A stretch of 15,908 nt of DNA from Armatimonadota bacterium (GTDB lineage Bacteria > Armatimonadota > Armatimonadia > Armatimonadales > Armatimonadaceae). Location of the stretch: NCBI GenBank assembly GCA_043754515.1, contig JAYUUO010000064.1:1-15908 (forward strand), read 5' to 3'. Both the position numbers and the translations under genes were made by a program. Every line of letters starts with the position of its first letter. Position 1 is the first letter of the stretch. Positions 5,071-15,908 of the stretch are shown piece after piece. The notes beneath the pieces are model-generated. The model was given only the letters and a program-made list of their open reading frames with translations, made no database searches and had not been told where the DNA came from.

Positions 5071-5407
5071 TCACAAGCCCGTCGTGGTTAGAACCGTGTC
5101 ACGCACCCAGTCAAACCGAGCCGGAGTCAGTTCACCGATCTTGTTCGGGAGGCGCACCTTGCCGCGCACCTGCACCTGATAGCCGAAGCACTACCGACTC
5201 TTGCGGCAGACTCGCTTCTCCGGCGTCTAGTTGGAGCGTCGCGGGCATGAGGAGGCACCTCATATTCGCAGTTGATGGGACCACGACCACGGTTGTTAAA
5301 ACGTCGTTTAGCGCGTCGTCTTGCATCACGATCGCGGGGCGTTGTCCCGCTTGTTCAGGCCCCGAGGGCGCACCGAAATCAGTCGTCCAGACCGCGCCCT
5401 GCTTCAC
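5071..5407 (-). pseudogene. MazF/PemK family mRNA interferase toxin with a +1 frameshift
   Basis: MKQGAVWTTDFGAPSGPEQAGQRPAIVMQDDALN...TVVVVPST is the PemK/MazF signature. Skipping one base near 5185 gives GYQVQVRGKVRLPNKIGELTPARFDWVRDTVLTTTGL* (stop 5073-5071), a typical MazF C-terminus. Length 337 nt = 3n+1. Confidence 0.85.
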
Positions 5408-5668
5408 GCGCTGTCTTCGGCGGCAAGTAGCGCGGCGCGGTGGGTCGGGTCAGAGTCGGCGAGCGCGGCGTCTTCACCGGCGAAGGCGGCGGCATTCGCG
5501 GATCGCCTCCAGGTCCCGGGTCGGCTCTGGGCGTGGGCGCGATTTGGCCTCCTCTCGCGCCAGATAGACGCGTATGGCGTCGGCGATCAGCGCGTCCGTG
5601 CCGATATGTCGGGCGGTAGCGAGGCGTTCAAGGCGCGTCAGGAGTTCCGGGGCGAGCGTAGCGGTCAT
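5404..5668 (-). pseudogene. Ribbon-helix-helix (CopG-like) antitoxin, frameshifted in its C-terminal part
   Basis: MTATLAPELLTRLERLATARHIGTDALIADAIRVYL is RHH-like. After a shift near 5497-5500 the other frame reads ANAAAFAGEDAALADSDPTHRAALLAAEDSA*, whose TGA overlaps the toxin GTG (GTGA). Length 265 nt = 3n+1. Confidence 0.72.
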
Positions 5669-8394: not shown

Positions 8395-11300
8395 TTAGCC
8401 GTGGCGTCGCGCCACGAGCAGGCAGACATCGTCGCGGAACGTCCCGCTGTCGCTGTAAGAGCGTGCCGCGCCCATGATGCCCCGCGCGATGGCGTCCGGG
8501 TCGCTTGTTCGTCGGGCGGTGCTCTCGACCTGTTCCGCCACGCCCTCGTTTCCGAAGAAGTCATGCCGCCCGCGCCGCGACTCCGTGATCCCGTCCGTAC
8601 ACAGCACCAGCAGATCGCCCGGCTCCATGCGATGCGGGATCGTGTCGTACTTGCTTTCCTCGTACGCGCCGATTACTAGTCCCCTCGTGCGGATTTCCTC
8701 GCACGCGCCCGTGCTCGCGTGCCACCAGAGCGGGAACTCCACGCCGCCGCCCGCGACTTGTAATTCCCCGCTCCCCGTTTCCAGCACCGCGACCGTGATC
8801 GCTGCCATCGCGTTGCTATCCTCGCTACCGCCCGCCTGCGGGTCAAGCTCCTCCGCGTCGGTTAAAAGGCGATTCAGCCGCGCCAGCGCGATGCCGGGGT
8901 CTGGGTTCTCGCGCAGGAAGGCCCGGAGCGCGTACTTGATCTGGCCCGTGTGCTCCGCCGCCTTCAGCCCCTTGCCGGTCACGTCGCCGACCACGAGCGC
9001 GACGCGGCTATTTCGGAGCGCGAAAACGTCGAAGAAGTCGCCGCCGACCTGCGCCTCGTCCAGCGCGGGTTCGTACTCGGTGGACACTATGATGCCGGGG
9101 AACGCGTTGCCGGGCGGCGTGCTGAGCAGCGAGCGTTGCAACGTTTCCGCGACGCGGGCCTGCTTCGTCGCGTACTCGGACAGTGCGAACTCGGCCTCCT
9201 TGCGGTCCGTGATGTCTGTATGAACCCCCACCCACTCGCGCACCGCCCCGCCCACCGCAGGAACAGGCACGGCGCGAACGGACATGTATCGGTAGGTCTC
9301 GTCGGCGTGACGCAGGCGATGCTCCCCGACGAATGACGAGCGAGTGGCGACCGCCTCGCGCCACAGCCGCGTCGTCTCCTCGTGGTCATCCTCGTGTATC
9401 GCCTCCAGCCAGCCCAACCCCGCGTACTCGTCATACGATTGACCGGTGAACGCCGCCCATCCGGGTTGCTCGGCGGCGAACGCGCCGCCCGCGTCCGTGG
9501 TCCACACGATCTGCGCGGTCGCCGTGGTCAGCGAGCGGAACCGCTCCTCGCTCCGGCGCACCTCCTCCTCGGCGCGGCGCGACTCGGTGACGTCGGTGTT
9601 GGTGCCGAACCAGCGCATGATGTTGCCCGCCGCGTCGCGCAGGGGGACCGCGCGGGATAGGAACCAGCGGTACTCGCCGTCCGCGCCGCGCAGGGGGAAC
9701 GTGTCCTCCCACTCCGCGCCGCGCGCCATGTGATCCGCGAACCGCGCGGTGACCGGCCCCACGTAATCCGGGTGATGCACGGCCCGCCAGCCCCAGCCGC
9801 GCATTTCGTCTATCGTGGTGCCGGTATAGTCGAACCAGCGCCGGTTGTACCAGAACAGCGAGCCGTCCCTGTCCCCCATCCACGCCAGTTGCGAGATGTT
9901 GTCGGCGAGGGCGCGGAACCGTTCTTCCGACTCGCGCGACAGCCGCTCCGCTTCGCGCCGCTCGGTGTGGTCCTCGAAGTAGGCGTAGACCAGGTACGGC
10001 TTCGCCTCGCCGGGGCGGGTCAGCGGCACGGCGGACACCGATAGCCAGCGGTAGCGGTTCTCGTCCGGGTGGAAGACGCCCATCGGCACGTCGCGCACGC
10101 TCCGCCCAGTGCGGAGCGCGACCGGCCCCGGGTGCTCGTCGCCGGGAAGATCCGAGCCGTCTTCGCGCACGGTCCTCCAGCGCGGGTCGAACGAGTCACG
10201 CCCGGTCATCTGCGCGAGTGTCAGCCCCAGTATCCGTTCGGCGGCGGGGTTCGCGTCCAGAATCCGCGCGTCCCCGTCCTGATAGACGACCCCGCTCGCG
10301 ACCGTGTTAAACAGGAAGCGGTAATGCTCCTCGCGCGCCGCCAGTTCGTCCGCCGCACGCGTCTTCTCGGTGACGTCGAACGCGACCCCGATGATGCCGT
10401 CCGGCTCCCCGTCGTCGTTCATGACCGGGCTACAGCGCATCTCGAACACGATGCCGTTCACCGGCACGTTCCAGGAGACGGATTCGCCGTCCAGGGCGCG
10501 GCGCAGGTTAGCGGTCAGTTCCGGGAAATCCGCGTAAACGTCCCACGCCGATCTCCCGACGACCTCGCCCGGCTTCAGACCGATGCTGGCAAGCCCCGCG
10601 CCGTCGCTGAACGTGAACATGCCGTCTTTATCCAGCGCGAACGCCGTGATCGGCGCGTTCCCGATCACGGTGCGGAACCGTGACTCCGACTCGCGCAGGG
10701 ACTCGGCGGATTCACGCAACGCGTCCAGGGTGTTCCGCTCGTCCGTGATGTCGCGGAGCACGCCCACGATCCGGCCCCCGTTATCGCCGCTCCCCGGCAA
10801 GCGGGTGCCCAACGCGGACACCCAGCGCACGGTGTGGTCGGCGCGTCGCACCCGGTACTGCTCGGAGTAGACCGTGTCCGGCGCGTCATACGGGGGCAGT
10901 TTACGCAGGTAGTCCCCGAACACGGCCACGATCCGCTCCCTGTCCGTCTCGTGGATTCGCTCCCGCCAGTCATTGACCGCGAGCGGTTCGCCGGGCGCGA
11001 CCTGGAACAGTTCTGACGAGGCGGCGTCCGCGAGGATGCAACTACCCGCCTCATCATACTCCCACATCCCCAGTTTCGCCGACTGAACCGCTATCGCGAG
11101 GCGACTTTGCGACTCGCGCAGTTCGTCCAGGATCCTGTGCGAGTCGTCAATATCGGTGCAGGTGCCGATCCACATCCGCACCGCGCCCGTCGCGGCGTCG
11201 CGCACCGGCATCGCCCGCCCGACGAACCAGCGGTACACGCCGTCGTGCCGCCGGAACCTGTACTCTATATCGTAGTCCTCGCCCGCTTCCCACGCCTGCC

Positions 11301-11556
11301 GCCAGCGCGCCAGGGTTCGCTCCAGATCGTCGGGGTGGAGCGGGTTTACGAAGCCGAAACCCAGGCTGTCAGCCTCGGTCATCCCAGTGTACTCATACCA
11401 GCGGCGGTTGAAGTAGAAGTGCGAGCCGTCCGCGTCCGTCGCCCAGACGAACTGCGGCATGGCGTCGGCGAGCGTCGAAAAAAGCCCGCTGACGGTGTCC
11501 GCGACGGAGTCGGGGGACGGGTTATCCGCTAGTTTTGTGGAGATGTTATCTAGCAT
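8395..11556 (-). CDS. Multi-PAS sensor with C-terminal SpoIIE/PP2C (RsbU-like) serine phosphatase
   Basis: About six PAS/PAC repeats (e.g. WATDADG..YFNRRWYEYTG..HPDD..YRWF..WIGTCTDI), then PP2C motifs VGGDFFDVF, VVGDVTGKG, LCTDGITE, DDVCLLV. No obvious transmembrane segment. Confidence 0.93.
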   Translation of the reverse strand: MLDNISTKLADNPSPDSVADTVSGLFSTLADAMPQFVWATDADGSHFYFNRRWYEYTGMTEADSLGFGFVNPLHPDDLERTLARWRQAWEAGEDYDIEYRFRRHDGVYRWFVGRAMPVRDAATGAVRMWIGTCTDIDDSHRILDELRESQSRLAIAVQSAKLGMWEYDEAGSCILADAASSELFQVAPGEPLAVNDWRERIHETDRERIVAVFGDYLRKLPPYDAPDTVYSEQYRVRRADHTVRWVSALGTRLPGSGDNGGRIVGVLRDITDERNTLDALRESAESLRESESRFRTVIGNAPITAFALDKDGMFTFSDGAGLASIGLKPGEVVGRSAWDVYADFPELTANLRRALDGESVSWNVPVNGIVFEMRCSPVMNDDGEPDGIIGVAFDVTEKTRAADELAAREEHYRFLFNTVASGVVYQDGDARILDANPAAERILGLTLAQMTGRDSFDPRWRTVREDGSDLPGDEHPGPVALRTGRSVRDVPMGVFHPDENRYRWLSVSAVPLTRPGEAKPYLVYAYFEDHTERREAERLSRESEERFRALADNISQLAWMGDRDGSLFWYNRRWFDYTGTTIDEMRGWGWRAVHHPDYVGPVTARFADHMARGAEWEDTFPLRGADGEYRWFLSRAVPLRDAAGNIMRWFGTNTDVTESRRAEEEVRRSEERFRSLTTATAQIVWTTDAGGAFAAEQPGWAAFTGQSYDEYAGLGWLEAIHEDDHEETTRLWREAVATRSSFVGEHRLRHADETYRYMSVRAVPVPAVGGAVREWVGVHTDITDRKEAEFALSEYATKQARVAETLQRSLLSTPPGNAFPGIIVSTEYEPALDEAQVGGDFFDVFALRNSRVALVVGDVTGKGLKAAEHTGQIKYALRAFLRENPDPGIALARLNRLLTDAEELDPQAGGSEDSNAMAAITVAVLETGSGELQVAGGGVEFPLWWHASTGACEEIRTRGLVIGAYEESKYDTIPHRMEPGDLLVLCTDGITESRRGRHDFFGNEGVAEQVESTARRTSDPDAIARGIMGAARSYSDSGTFRDDVCLLVARRHG

Positions 11557-11889: not shown

Positions 11890-12675
11890 TTACGCGACGG
11901 TCTTGCGGCGGCGCGCGACGATGACCGCGGCGAGGGCGGGGAGGCAGGCGGCGAGCAGGGCGGGGGTGCCGCTTTCCGGGACGACGGTGATGGACCAGCC
12001 GAAGTTCGCGACGGGACTCCCGCTGAAGTTTGAAAAGGTTCCTATCGGGTTGTTCGCCAAAAAGCTACCCGCCGCCGTGGTTCGGAAGAAAGTGTCCTGA
12101 CTGGTTCCGGCGGTAGGCGGGTTGAAGATCCCCTGACCGAGATTGTTCAACTGCGCGGCGGTTGCCCCTGTCGCTCCTGTGTTGTCATCGAACGTGATTC
12201 CTGCCCAGAGCAGATTGTTCGTGATTGGCGCGAGGCTGACATAGTTCGCGGTGGTGAGCGTCGCGGTGAAGGTCGAGACGGTAGTACCCGCCGCGGTACC
12301 GGCGGCGAAACTGATGGGGTTGAAACTAAAACCGCCTAGAAACGTGCCGGGGCCGTTGCTCGCGCCATCACCTGCATAGAAGCGGATGCGTGGGCGCGCG
12401 GAGACAGCGGTAAGGTTCGCGTTGCCAACCGAGAAGGTAAACGCGGAGATGAACTGGCCCGCGGCGAAAAGGGGCGAGGACAGATCGTCTGCAACCAGGC
12501 TAGTGATGGTATTGCCAGCGGTGGGCGTCGCGTTGCCGTTGCTGAACGCCCCGATGAGGGTGGCAGTGTTGCTGTAGGCGACAATCTGGGCGTTCGCGCC
12601 CGGAGCGGCGAGTGACAGCACGGCGGCGAGGGCGAGGGCGCGAACGGCGGTGCCCAGGGTATTGAAACGATTCAT
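11890..12675 (-). CDS. PEP-CTERM-type exosortase-targeted surface protein
   Basis: Signal peptide (MNRF...LAAPGANA|Q) and a Thr/Gly/Asn/Phe-rich body. The C-terminus is VPESGT + hydrophobic helix + RRRK, a variant PEP-CTERM sorting signal. Confidence 0.85.
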   Translation of the reverse strand: MNRFNTLGTAVRALALAAVLSLAAPGANAQIVAYSNTATLIGAFSNGNATPTAGNTITSLVADDLSSPLFAAGQFISAFTFSVGNANLTAVSARPRIRFYAGDGASNGPGTFLGGFSFNPISFAAGTAAGTTVSTFTATLTTANYVSLAPITNNLLWAGITFDDNTGATGATAAQLNNLGQGIFNPPTAGTSQDTFFRTTAAGSFLANNPIGTFSNFSGSPVANFGWSITVVPESGTPALLAACLPALAAVIVARRRKTVA

Positions 12676-12859: not shown

Positions 12860-12888
12860 AGTATACACCTAAGTCGCTATATTTTCAA
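12860..12888 (-). promoter_or_regulatory. Sigma70-type promoter for the PEP-CTERM gene
   Basis: Minus strand TTGAAA (12888-12883), 17 bp spacer, TATACT (12865-12860), in a locally AT-rich patch. TAGGAG Shine-Dalgarno-like sequence upstream of the ATG. Confidence 0.6.
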
Positions 12889-13018
12889 CCTGTTTGTCAT
12901 ATTTTTTCGCCGATACACAGGAATCCAGAAGTCTCGCGCCGCCATACAGACGTGACGCGCCCGTAGATCGGCTTCCCCCTCGCTTAGAAGAGTCAAACTC
13001 GTTCATTCAGACGAGGTC

Positions 13019-14632
13019 TCACGGCAAAGGCGATAAGTCAAGCTCTGTGAGGAACCGGTTGTACTTCTTTGTTGCCTCAATAATTCTTACTTCAATTTCG
13101 AGCAGAGAGGCGTTCACCTCGGCCAGGTCGATCTCTTTCTCGGAGGAAGAGGTGCTGATATAGCGGGAGATATTCAGGTTGTACTCGTTCGCTTCGATCT
13201 CTTTGAGGGAGACGCGCCGGGAATAATGCTCCTCTTCGCTGCGGAACTGGTAGGTGGCGACAATCTTTTCTATGTGCTCCGGCAATAGGCGGTTCTGACG
13301 TTTGTCTTTTACGAAGTTCCCAGGCCCGGCGGCGTTGATAAAGAGCACATCGTCGAATTTCTTGCACTTTTTCAGCACCAGAATACAGACCGGGATACCC
13401 GTCGAGAAGAATAGATTGGCGGGCAGGCCGATCACGGTGTCGATGTGGTTGTCTTTGAGCAGCTTGGTACGAATACGGTCTTCGACGCCCCCCCGGAACA
13501 GGACGCCGTGGGGCAGGATAATCGCCATCGTGCCTTCCTGCTTCAGGTAGTGGAAGCCGTGCAGCAGAAAGGCGAAGTCGGCGGCGGACTTGGGTGCGAG
13601 GCCGTAATTCTTAAAGCGGACATCGTCGCCGATGGCGTCGGTGGGTTCCCAGCGGTAGCTGAAGGGCGGATTGGCGACCACGGCATCGAACTGGGGCTTT
13701 CGCGCCGGGTTGGCTTCGCGCAGCCTGTCCCAATCGTTGGTGAGGGTATCGCCGTGGAATATCTCAAACTCCGAGTCCTTTACGCCGTGCAGCAGCATAT
13801 TCATGCGGGCGAGGTTGTAGGTGGTGATGTTCTTTTCTTGCCCGTAGATCTTGCCGATGCCGTGGAGTCCCAGCCGGTTGCGAACATTCAGCAGGAGGGA
13901 GCCGGAACCGCAGGCAAAATCGAAGACACTTTCCAGGTGCTGCTTCTTACCGGTTGCCGGTTCCTGGCTATCCAGCGTAACGATGGCGGAGAGGATGCTG
14001 GAGATCTGTTGCGGGGTGTAGAACTCGCCTGCCTTCTTGCCAGAACCGGCGGCGAACTGCCCGATCAGGTACTCGTAGGCATCGCCCAGGGTGTCAATGT
14101 CGGTGGAGAACTGCGCCAGCCCCTCGGCAATCTTGCCGATGATGGCGCAAAGCTTGGCGTTGCGTTCGGTGTAGTTCTTTCCGAGCTTTTCCGAGTTGAG
14201 GTTGATTTCGGAGAACAGACCGTTGAACGTGCTGGCGAAGGACTCGTTCTCGATATAATCGAAGCCCTTTTGCAGGGTGTGCGATAGCTCCCCGTTCTGT
14301 GTCCGGGCCATCTCCGCGATACTTCCCCAGAGATGGGACGGCTGAATGACATAATGCACCTTACGGCGCATCTGCGCTTCAAATTCCGCCGTATCGTCCG
14401 AGTTCTCGTCGTACCAGACGGCGAGGGGGGTGCGCTTGTCTGTCCTGTCCAGCGCGGGATAGTCGTTCCCTAGTTCTTTGCGGGCGGTGGTTTCGTAGTT
14501 GTCGGAGAGGTAGCGCAGAAAGAGAAAGGAGAGCATATAGTCGCGGAAGTCGTCCGCGTTCATCGCGCCGCGCAATTGGTCGGCGATAGCCCAGAGGGTG
14601 TTACCCAGTTGTTTGTTTGTTTGTTCGTTCAC
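13019..14632 (-). CDS. hsdM: Type I restriction-modification system methyltransferase subunit M (N6-adenine)
   Basis: LWAIADQLRGAMNADDFRDY N-terminus, GDAYEYLIGQFAAGSGKKAGEFYTP, motif I FDFACGSGSLL, motif IV NPPF, LPHGVLFRGG, YNLNISRY. GTG start overlaps the upstream stop (GTGA). Confidence 0.97.
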   Translation of the reverse strand: MNEQTNKQLGNTLWAIADQLRGAMNADDFRDYMLSFLFLRYLSDNYETTARKELGNDYPALDRTDKRTPLAVWYDENSDDTAEFEAQMRRKVHYVIQPSHLWGSIAEMARTQNGELSHTLQKGFDYIENESFASTFNGLFSEINLNSEKLGKNYTERNAKLCAIIGKIAEGLAQFSTDIDTLGDAYEYLIGQFAAGSGKKAGEFYTPQQISSILSAIVTLDSQEPATGKKQHLESVFDFACGSGSLLLNVRNRLGLHGIGKIYGQEKNITTYNLARMNMLLHGVKDSEFEIFHGDTLTNDWDRLREANPARKPQFDAVVANPPFSYRWEPTDAIGDDVRFKNYGLAPKSAADFAFLLHGFHYLKQEGTMAIILPHGVLFRGGVEDRIRTKLLKDNHIDTVIGLPANLFFSTGIPVCILVLKKCKKFDDVLFINAAGPGNFVKDKRQNRLLPEHIEKIVATYQFRSEEEHYSRRVSLKEIEANEYNLNISRYISTSSSEKEIDLAEVNASLLEIEVRIIEATKKYNRFLTELDLSPLP

Positions 14633-14832
14633 GTTGCGTCTTTTTCGTCGGGGGGGGCAGACTGGAGGAGTTCCTGCGTGGAAATACGAGTGAGTTGCCC
14701 ATTCTTAACGACTATAAGGTCGGTGCCGGTCTGGATTGCTGTTTTGCGTGCCAGCAAGGCAGCACGTTTCAGCGCACCCAGGGCGGCGCGTATGTCGGGA
14801 TCTTTGGCTTTGGAAATATCTTCGGGCTTCAT
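14629..14832 (-). CDS. Small hypothetical protein, partner of the upstream zeta-like kinase
   Basis: 67 aa. ATGA overlap with the upstream gene and GTGA overlap with hsdM. Helix (ALKRAALLARKTA) followed by a beta hairpin (LIVVKNGQLTRI), as in small ORFs that follow COG4185-type genes. Confidence 0.75.
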   Translation of the reverse strand: MKPEDISKAKDPDIRAALGALKRAALLARKTAIQTGTDLIVVKNGQLTRISTQELLQSAPPDEKDAT

Positions 14833-15347
14833 TTATTTTCTCCCCATCCGAGCAGGATCGGTTCCTCGCCGTCGTTATCAAACTTAGACCAGGTATCCAC
14901 CTCGGTCTTGTAGACGTGTTCAAAATTTCGTAACCCGGCGGCAAAGCGGCGGCGTATCGTTTCTTCCGGGATATGGTGCCCCCCTTGACGAACTCGCTCC
15001 GCCACCCGGGCGACAGCCGTCTCGACGTTAGACAAAGCCAGAAAAAACAGGCTGACATGATAGCCTTGCAATTGCCATTGCTTGAGTTGTGCCAGGTAGC
15101 CCCGTCCGGAGAGCGTCGTCTCAAGAGCAAAACTTTCTCCACGTCGCACGCATGCTGCAATTTCTTCCAGCATCAAGCGTGCCGATTTGATCGCAACCGT
15201 TTCCGGCGCAAAGGGCGATAGCCCCGCCGCAATCAGGTCAGCATTGAGGAAGCGCAGTGTCTGCGCTTCTTCCGGCAGGAACGAACGGGCAAACGTCGTT
15301 TTCCCTGCGCCATTGGGTCCCGCAATGATGATGACTTTTTTACTCAT
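14829..15347 (-). CDS. Zeta-toxin-like / AAA_33 P-loop kinase (COG4185-like)
   Basis: MSKKVIIIAGPNGAGKTT Walker A, FLNADLIAAGLSPF, SFALETTLSG, RVAERVRQGGHHIPEETIRRRF, FDN. 172 aa from ATG 15347, which overlaps the upstream stop (ATGAGTAA). Confidence 0.88.
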   Translation of the reverse strand: MSKKVIIIAGPNGAGKTTFARSFLPEEAQTLRFLNADLIAAGLSPFAPETVAIKSARLMLEEIAACVRRGESFALETTLSGRGYLAQLKQWQLQGYHVSLFFLALSNVETAVARVAERVRQGGHHIPEETIRRRFAAGLRNFEHVYKTEVDTWSKFDNDGEEPILLGWGENK

Positions 15348-15908
15348 CCTTATTGCTCTCCTGGCGGGTTTCTTCCAGAGCAAGTTCTGGTATCTTGAAC
15401 TGGTAACGATCCATGAATGCCTGGAAGATCTTCTGGAAAAGTCGTTTTGTATCTTCTACCATTTCCCTGGGTTCGTACAGGGAGTAGTTTCCATGACTGA
15501 GTAGGTTCAAGGCTCTGGCATACAGAACTTCATCGTCCATGCCTTGAAGACAATAGGAAAAATCATCGTGCCCGAAAAAGGTGGCCGTTTTCTCCATAAT
15601 GCTTCGCAGCATGTTGAAGTGACAGGTATAAAGTGGGCCGTCTTTTGCCGCCTTGTGCAGTTCACTCAGCAACGCGACATGATGAAAAAACGGCGTCGCA
15701 TCGGTGGCACGCAATACATACTGTTCGGTTGCCGCACTCTTGTGTAAGAAGTATTTTTTATGCTTCCTTTTTCTGAGTTCATTACATACCACATTGAAAA
15801 ACAGGCCATGATGCGAGGAGATGACCGCTTTTATTTCCGTGGTTTGCCTTAGTAGATCCGCGAGATGACAGGCGACGGCAATAGCATTGTTATCGTCGAG
15901 CGAGGAGA
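15340..15908 (-). CDS. prrC: PrrC-like anticodon nuclease (ABC-ATPase + HEPN), C-terminal part, truncated by the window edge
   Basis: Frame is open to the window end: SSLDDNNAIAVACHLADLL (ABC D-loop), VISSHHGLFFNV (H-loop), TPFFHH, HFNMLRSIMEKTATFFG (R-x3-E), RALNLLSHG (catalytic His region). Linked to hsdM. Confidence 0.85.
   Translation of the reverse strand, partial: SSLDDNNAIAVACHLADLLRQTTEIKAVISSHHGLFFNVVCNELRKRKHKKYFLHKSAATEQYVLRATDATPFFHHVALLSELHKAAKDGPLYTCHFNMLRSIMEKTATFFGHDDFSYCLQGMDDEVLYARALNLLSHGNYSLYEPREMVEDTKRLFQKIFQAFMDRYQFKIPELALEETRQESNKDE

Follow-up and report, generated by a model that had tools for sequence, protein, structure and literature searches.

Among the described toxin-antitoxin (TA) systems, the closest to the locus reported here is PezAT-Mtb (Rv0366c-Rv0367c), for which the published sections on this operon state that the toxin arrests growth and is rescued by an upstream ribbon-helix-helix (RHH) gene (PMC6362051; PMC6504116), with GPNGAGKS, N34, D36, E75, R116 and H122 as the residues given for Rv0366c (PMC6362051). 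Many PezT/zeta homologues without a known antitoxin were recorded in a 2023 survey, in which, according to its outline of the search, new antitoxins were sought only upstream (PMC10532202). The window analysed here, a stretch of 15,908 nucleotides from an Armatimonadota bacterium (contig JAYUUO010000064.1, assembly GCA_043754515.1), carries near its end, on the minus strand and between prrC and hsdM genes, a zeta/PezT-like short P-loop kinase of 172 amino acids (15347-14829), a predicted toxin by Pfam, conserved columns, a structure model and fold matches, and directly behind it an open reading frame (ORF) of 67 amino acids (14832-14629), a predicted antitoxin by its pairing, natural fusions and a structure taken from a fusion. 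The kinase and the 67-amino-acid ORF are read as a toxin-first type II TA cassette riding host operons, with a probability of about 60%, and this widespread mobile cassette is likely an independent passenger in a variable slot of the hsdR-hsdS-prrC-hsdM operon.

The kinase, presumably a member of COG4185, for which only the name 'predicted ABC-type ATPase' was supplied by a database, matched the Pfam families Zeta_toxin (PF06414; E 2e-10, 40.7 bits against a cut-off of 22.3) and AAA_33 (E 2e-9, above cut-off), and its structure was modelled with a predicted local distance difference test (pLDDT) score of 90 and a predicted template-modelling score (pTM) of 0.86. Foldseek placed AvrRxo1, PezT and zeta in the top ranks, with a template-modelling (TM) score of 0.81 to zeta (1gvn), and VIA-align returned a tie between Pnk (Z 16.9, root-mean-square deviation (rmsd) 3.0, 156 aligned residues) and zeta (Z 15.9, rmsd 2.3, 166 aligned residues), so that the zeta- or Pnk-like character proposed in a preliminary description of the stretch is borne out by the Pfam matches plus two fold searches. 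The kinase fold (rmsd 2.3–2.7) and a small neighbouring partner are shared with epsilon/zeta and PezAT (1gvn, 3q8x, 2p5t) and with AvrRxo1-ORF1/ORF2 (4z8q), whereas the window kinase is about 100 residues shorter than canonical zeta/PezT, only 15–17% identical to them, and devoid of the GTxR motif that binds UDP-N-acetylglucosamine (UDP-GlcNAc) after the Glu, where E76-T-T-L-S stands in its place; the acceptor is therefore probably not UDP-GlcNAc bound in the streptococcal manner. The key residues, which are Walker A G10-T17, N35, D37, E76, R114/R118 and H124, occupy invariant columns of 38 sequences, and Walker A, N35-x-D37, E76, R114-V-x-x-R118 and GH-x-IP are kept in 146–156 of 156 intact copies. 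The equivalents of zeta D67/E116/R158 are D37/E76/R118, invariant or nearly so, by a correspondence drawn from the residue numbers printed in PMC6362051. As far as the published sections on PezAT-Mtb extend, the likeness comprises a short zeta kinase without N-terminal helical region and GTxR, a two-gene operon, and Walker A GPNGAGK[S/T], Asn-x-Asp, Glu, Arg and His at near-identical spacing; by the same sections the two differ in that the PezAT-Mtb antitoxin is upstream, 129 amino acids long and a predicted RHH protein, whereas the window partner is downstream, about 65 amino acids long and formed of helix plus beta-hairpin, and in that toxicity has been shown there and is a prediction for the window pair. 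Motifs of the family occur in about 19,000 metagenome stretches, and of 400 genomes sampled evenly from one large phylum, 39 have the kinase.

The pairing was followed through kinase loci from GTDB genomes (63), host relatives (20 regions), metagenomes (the 80 best among 579 confirmed ones, with 2 of 64 collection parts covered) and viral contigs (the best 80, of which only the 9 closest are counted; from the remaining 71, a set of 12 was inspected). With an iterated profile, the partner was detected directly downstream in 151 of the 156 kinase loci that extend far enough to contain it; two of the five loci missed by the profile show a partner by eye, a single non-adjacent match was returned among 14,395 ORFs, and the partner was present in 27 of the best 29 kinase loci of the even 400-genome sample. 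The 67-amino-acid ORF belongs to no Pfam, NCBIfam, PADLOC or PHROGs family, has no family among PDB sequences and falls only into unnamed clusters of the ESM Atlas (0.85); it is a real gene, because a single-sequence search gave 29 homologues and because its place directly behind the kinase recurs. The overlap with the kinase is a property of the module itself, with an offset of -4 in 90 of 147 loci and some overlap in 127 of them, and the Shine-Dalgarno match was the stronger for the partner in 89 of the 147, a comparison that is biased by the larger number of candidate starts in partners and was given no weight. Ten single-ORF fusions of kinase and partner were observed in about six lineages; of 21 longer database proteins that contain the partner domain, 15 also carry Zeta_toxin/AAA_33, one fusion protein being 86% identical to the window kinase, and a comparable natural fusion is found in EzeT as it is presented in PMC10532202. 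Given this tight pairing and the natural fusions, kinase plus partner, and not the four-gene chain, is taken as the unit, and the same tight pairing makes neutralisation of the kinase by its partner the leading reading of the small protein.

The natural fusions hint at direct binding between kinase and partner. The model of one of them (L016; mean pLDDT 91, pTM 0.75), which gave no readout of kinase-partner contact, predicts a long helix, a beta-hairpin and a short helix for the partner part. Family and sequence searches with the partner and its homologues returned no helix-turn-helix (HTH), RHH or ParD_like match, no fold search having been made with the partner by itself. Derivation of the partner as a split-off C-terminus of full-length zeta received no support, the fold searches having aligned the fusion only to about residue 181, which scarcely covers the partner. 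The pair also differs from epsilon/zeta and PezAT in that the toxin gene comes first and the downstream partner shows no match to epsilon or PezA; the gene upstream of the window kinase is prrC, not epsilon, an HTH PezA or an RHH/ParD-like antitoxin. A flipped order, with the partner upstream, was seen on a Paenibacillus plasmid. Kinases of a distant clade occur frequently in phage contigs (L191-L261): no partner was found next to the distant gut-phage kinases of the 12 inspected contigs, and some distant viral kinases have an upstream Arc/RHH or HTH gene, that of L218 being an Arc (PF03869) above cut-off in an arrangement that resembles Rv0366c-Rv0367c. As a separate observation, the partner domain also occurs in fusions with DUF433, with a minimal nucleotidyltransferase and with a further domain that has no annotation (P0035, P0043 and P0032), which may be read-through of neighbouring genes.

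The likeness to polynucleotide kinases (4gp6, 4xrp and T4 Pnk, 1ly1), in fold class (Z 13.6–16.9), Walker A, the catalytic Asp and the RxxxR lid, with 12–20% sequence identity and with Pnkp1 as the top sequence match among solved structures (E 0.002), would also suit a non-toxic two-subunit kinase acting on a nucleotide, a cofactor or an RNA 5'-OH, with the small protein as a structural or activating subunit. The frequent fusions fit such a subunit and an antitoxin equally, and the presence of a kinase homologue, roughly a single copy per genome, in 29 of the 40 relatives of the host agrees with it as well. This alternative is nevertheless distinctly improbable: neither an RNA ligase nor a phosphatase nor a Hen1 gene was found among the nearest neighbours scanned, location varies within one family, about 13 of 170 kinases are broken, the related short mycobacterial PezT is toxic, and the plasmid copies of the pair lie among VapBC, DarTG and MNT genes.

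In the window, four overlapping minus-strand genes form the chain that the preliminary description had drawn, as confirmed by the ORF coordinates and by family scans for PrrC, kinase and HsdM: the C-terminal half of prrC (15340..15908, reading frame 15906-15340), identified by the PADLOC PrrC profile and alignment with PrrC homologues; the kinase; the partner; and hsdM (14632-13019), which encodes a type I restriction-modification (RM) methyltransferase subunit of 537 amino acids, identified by TIGR00497 (E 1e-119) and by gene order in relatives. The prrC/kinase junction is the overlap ATGAGTAA, that of the kinase and the 67-amino-acid ORF is ATGA and that of the ORF and hsdM is GTGA. The same description took all four genes to be apparently intact, which stands for the open kinase and 67-amino-acid frames but goes too far for prrC, cut by the contig end with its last 188 codons present. 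By the order in relatives, hsdM is the final gene of an operon ordered hsdR-hsdS-(slot)-hsdM. In the window, hsdM starts with GTG and the Shine-Dalgarno scan gave no match for it, so that hsdM is probably translated in dependence on the partner; such dependence is coupling and gives no evidence for shared function. Stretch 14538-15908 recurs without a differing letter in contigs of two sequencing runs from the likely source study, one of which also bridges the host/RM junction near 13000, and the last 2.9 kb have a guanine-cytosine content of 46–56% per gene versus 62% across the 5.1-Mb genome. The window comprises an entire contig (G000:C64) of this genome, whose relatives appear to group with Armatimonadota in the kinase tree. 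As for the remainder of the operon, which the preliminary description had proposed to look for, contig C5 (G000:C5:3919-6564) runs out inside an HsdR about 80% identical to the HsdR of the window's RM clade and is probably the start (5' part) of this operon, and no matching hsdS was found in the genome assembly. Searches around the window pair found no repeats or target-site duplication; no promoter-like site was detected within the window's RM genes, and no tRNA was found. In a close strain of a second study (run X5), a 3.5-kb contig has a one-base insertion in the kinase gene at window position 15121, with a partner 99% identical, the two matches being apparently linked.

Across loci, a bias towards RM genes was observed that is real and confined to one kinase clade. 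Among kinases at least 55% identical to that of the window, a type I (30 cases) or type III (15) gene was present within 2.6 kb of 45 and absent around 29, the stretches of another 34 being too short to judge. Below 55%, none is RM-adjacent, 50 are not and 14 are too short; enrichment at RM loci thus applies to the one clade (45 of 74 judged) and not to the distant kinases (0 of 50). The RM-adjacent rows all fall inside one clade of 106 rows (starred) of a quick tree with SH-like approximate likelihood ratio (SH-aLRT) supports only, on which 16 changes of RM state were counted, as against an average of 35 after label shuffling. RM genes adjoin 7 of the 29 loci in the even sample, whereas 2% of the respective genomes lie close to such genes. 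The slots most often occupied are mod|res (12), hsdS|hsdM (8) and hsdS|hsdR (4); the RM profiles were seeded from these loci and miss other RM types. A PADLOC scan of 131 neighbours of the remaining close loci gave defence-like matches for only about a dozen, among them a type II RM pair, a phage methylase and a mod gene on the opposite strand, besides scattered candidates. A distant kinase copy with no RM gene nearby was found in 18 of the 20 fetched host-relative regions. The pair also sits inside housekeeping operons, at sucC|sucD, sucB|lpd, gcvPA|gcvPB and nuoL|nuoM (L336, L338, L052, L048, L049, L061 and L041). Because it interrupts such operons too, tightly joined nesting is characteristic of the cassette in general, and the argument that the overlaps mean that the module is built into the RM operon fails; tight upstream junctions occur at 79 of 153 pair loci versus 172 of 479 genes of the same genomes, a modest excess.

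The window PrrC (PADLOC PrrC, E 8e-63) contains the ABC D-loop, the H-loop and the nuclease domain and is 53–71% identical to plasmid proteins, some of them annotated as anticodon nuclease. The EcoPrrC positions H295, H315, R320, N321, E324, R349, N352 and H356 were checked by alignment to PrrC homologues, not to EcoPrrC itself; that alignment shows conservation at the His, Arg, Glu, Asn352 and His356 positions, and Ser stands at the position of Asn321, which is essential in EcoPrrC, with Ser or Thr across most of the subclade, whose activity or specificity may differ from that of EcoPrrC. That PrrC and the pair act together, in a three-layer defence unit in which the kinase would modulate PrrC or phosphorylate tRNA cleavage products, was the central proposal of the preliminary description. 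The direct overlap with prrC in the window and in locus L001, together with a decayed copy at L024, speaks for it, as does the Pnk-like fold of the kinase. The distribution of the genes runs the other way: besides the window, only 2 of 172 scanned kinase loci have prrC, and neither kinase nor partner was found at any of 51 PrrC loci within flanks of 1.5–4 kb (47 from genome samples with about 1.5 kb on each side and four from plasmids with 4 kb; two share a replicon and three are partial), and the proposed link to PrrC fails. The closest genomic relatives of the kinase (80%, 76% and 76% identical) are all without PrrC, the nearest (G013, 80%) having the pair ahead of hsdR and no prrC.

The operons of the window's HsdM clade lead to the same result. 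In this arrangement prrC usually abuts or overlaps hsdM directly, as in a relative of the same family (G012) with an HsdM 81% identical to that of the window, where the site of the pair is empty. Of 16 operons of the clade in 400 genomes, 10 carry prrC (one interrupted) and none has the pair within the fetched stretch, four being cut by contig ends; RhuM, Bro-N, PIN-like and 23S-IVP genes were found as other passengers in the same slots. Where the pair is present and the upstream side visible, prrC occurs in 3 of 12 operons, rarer than the 10 of 16 without the pair, which goes against a modulator of PrrC (Fisher p 0.07, the loci not being independent). The mobility of the pair is apparent on the HsdM tree, where its presence switches at least six times. 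PrrC is the default occupant of the slot, so some co-occurrence with the pair is expected; it is a co-passenger and not a dedicated partner, a modulator of PrrC is already disfavoured by the distribution, and the three-layer proposal is accordingly very improbable. A scan of viral contigs for PrrC found nothing.

The same operons bear on the main alternative, in which the pair would, in the RM-associated clade, act as a second line of protection for RM systems and take the slot in place of PrrC, such that phage inhibition of the type I/III complex or shut-off of the RM operon would free the kinase and arrest the infected cell. The restriction of all RM-adjacent rows to one clade agrees with it, as does the replacement of prrC by the pair, rather than its adjoining prrC, in 9 of the 12 HsdM-clade operons; precedents exist in PrrC, PARIS and Ronin, as summarised in PMC12409349, and zeta expression inhibited phage SPP1 according to the account in PMC10532202. 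A guard is unlikely all the same, as the same pair accompanies unrelated type I and III enzymes in several positions, including ahead of hsdR (L082), which would leave it no constant binding partner; moreover, 29 of the 74 judged close-kinase loci have no type I/III gene nearby, few defence-like PADLOC matches surround them, and the slots gather many unrelated passengers. In their published descriptions, EcoprrI/PrrC, Ronin and PARIS resemble the window in the nesting of a toxin gene in a type I RM operon (PMC12409349, PMC3025547), whereas EcoprrI is ordered hsdM-hsdS-prrC-hsdR as against hsdR-hsdS-prrC-hsdM in the window, and the window kinase, whose role as a guard is hypothetical, has a partner of its own and is not confined to RM operons.

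For the toxin-first TA cassette, the predicted course of events starts with transcription of the pair from the promoter of the host operon; such reliance, suggested by the lack of a detected DNA-binding domain in the partner, would account for the survival of the pair inside operons. The partner would be made by coupled translation at the kinase stop codon and would bind the kinase and keep it inactive, and the kinase, by means of Walker A, the catalytic Asp37 and the lid Arg118, is predicted to phosphorylate the hydroxyl of a nucleotide-type metabolite using ATP. Upon shut-off of the operon or loss of the island, decay of the partner would leave the kinase free to arrest growth, with the consequence that the RM island would be stabilised and phage perhaps slowed incidentally. 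Several points weigh against this cassette: the RM bias is far above background and is not fully explained by a neutral passenger; the tie between the polynucleotide kinase and zeta folds of the model may leave room for a non-toxic kinase; the apparent link to Rv0366c rests on published residue numbers and not on a direct alignment; the papers found describe no toxicity or rescue assay on any member of the pair; and the excess of broken kinases (about 13 of 170 loci versus 2–3 missing or truncated partners), approximating the gene-length ratio in loci that were found via the kinase, was not used as support.

In a literature search, mostly of open papers, no study of the kinase with its partner came to light; the partner is not listed in Table 4 of TASmania, and the supplementary clusters of the published surveys (PMC10532202, PMC6504116) could include it. 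As its downstream partner is nearly constant and belongs to no catalogued family, the short-kinase group offers a candidate antitoxin for a large orphan class. A bolder combination, in which the downstream helix-hairpin protein would be the overlooked antitoxin family of the 'orphan' short zetas and one clade would serve as a swappable, PrrC-replacing guard of type I/III operons, triggered by phage anti-restriction proteins that disable the RM complex or its expression, is doubtful; if the RM-resident clade were such a guard, it would add a kinase effector to the back-up defences of RM systems. A tractable model for the pair is offered by the defence island on plasmid pSYSG of Synechocystis PCC 6803 (L064, 1920-6601), where a kinase 64% identical to that of the window and the same partner stand, with no prrC, in the order hsdS-MNT-kinase-partner-DUF4433-macro domain (DarTG-like). 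The pair there appears by gene order and size to be sll8004 and ssl8003, which the relevant listing of Kopfmann et al. (2016) gives as TA-related and below the authors' criteria (PMC4963859). The window also advises caution, in that start/stop overlaps inside a defence operon do not prove functional integration.

Elsewhere in the window, a promoter-like TTGAAA-17-TATACT at 12860-12888 (minus strand) follows hsdM and lies upstream of an exported-looking ORF of 261 amino acids (11890-12675) with no Pfam match. A likely second TA pair is formed by a MazF/PemK-like ORF of 91 amino acids (Pfam E 2e-12) and a 64-amino-acid ORF upstream of it (5132-5668, minus strand), which directly precede secE-nusG-rplK-rplA-like genes. 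In addition, a SpoIIE-type phosphatase of 1053 amino acids with multiple PAS domains (8395-11556) and a ParB protein (206-1207) were observed, both on the minus strand.

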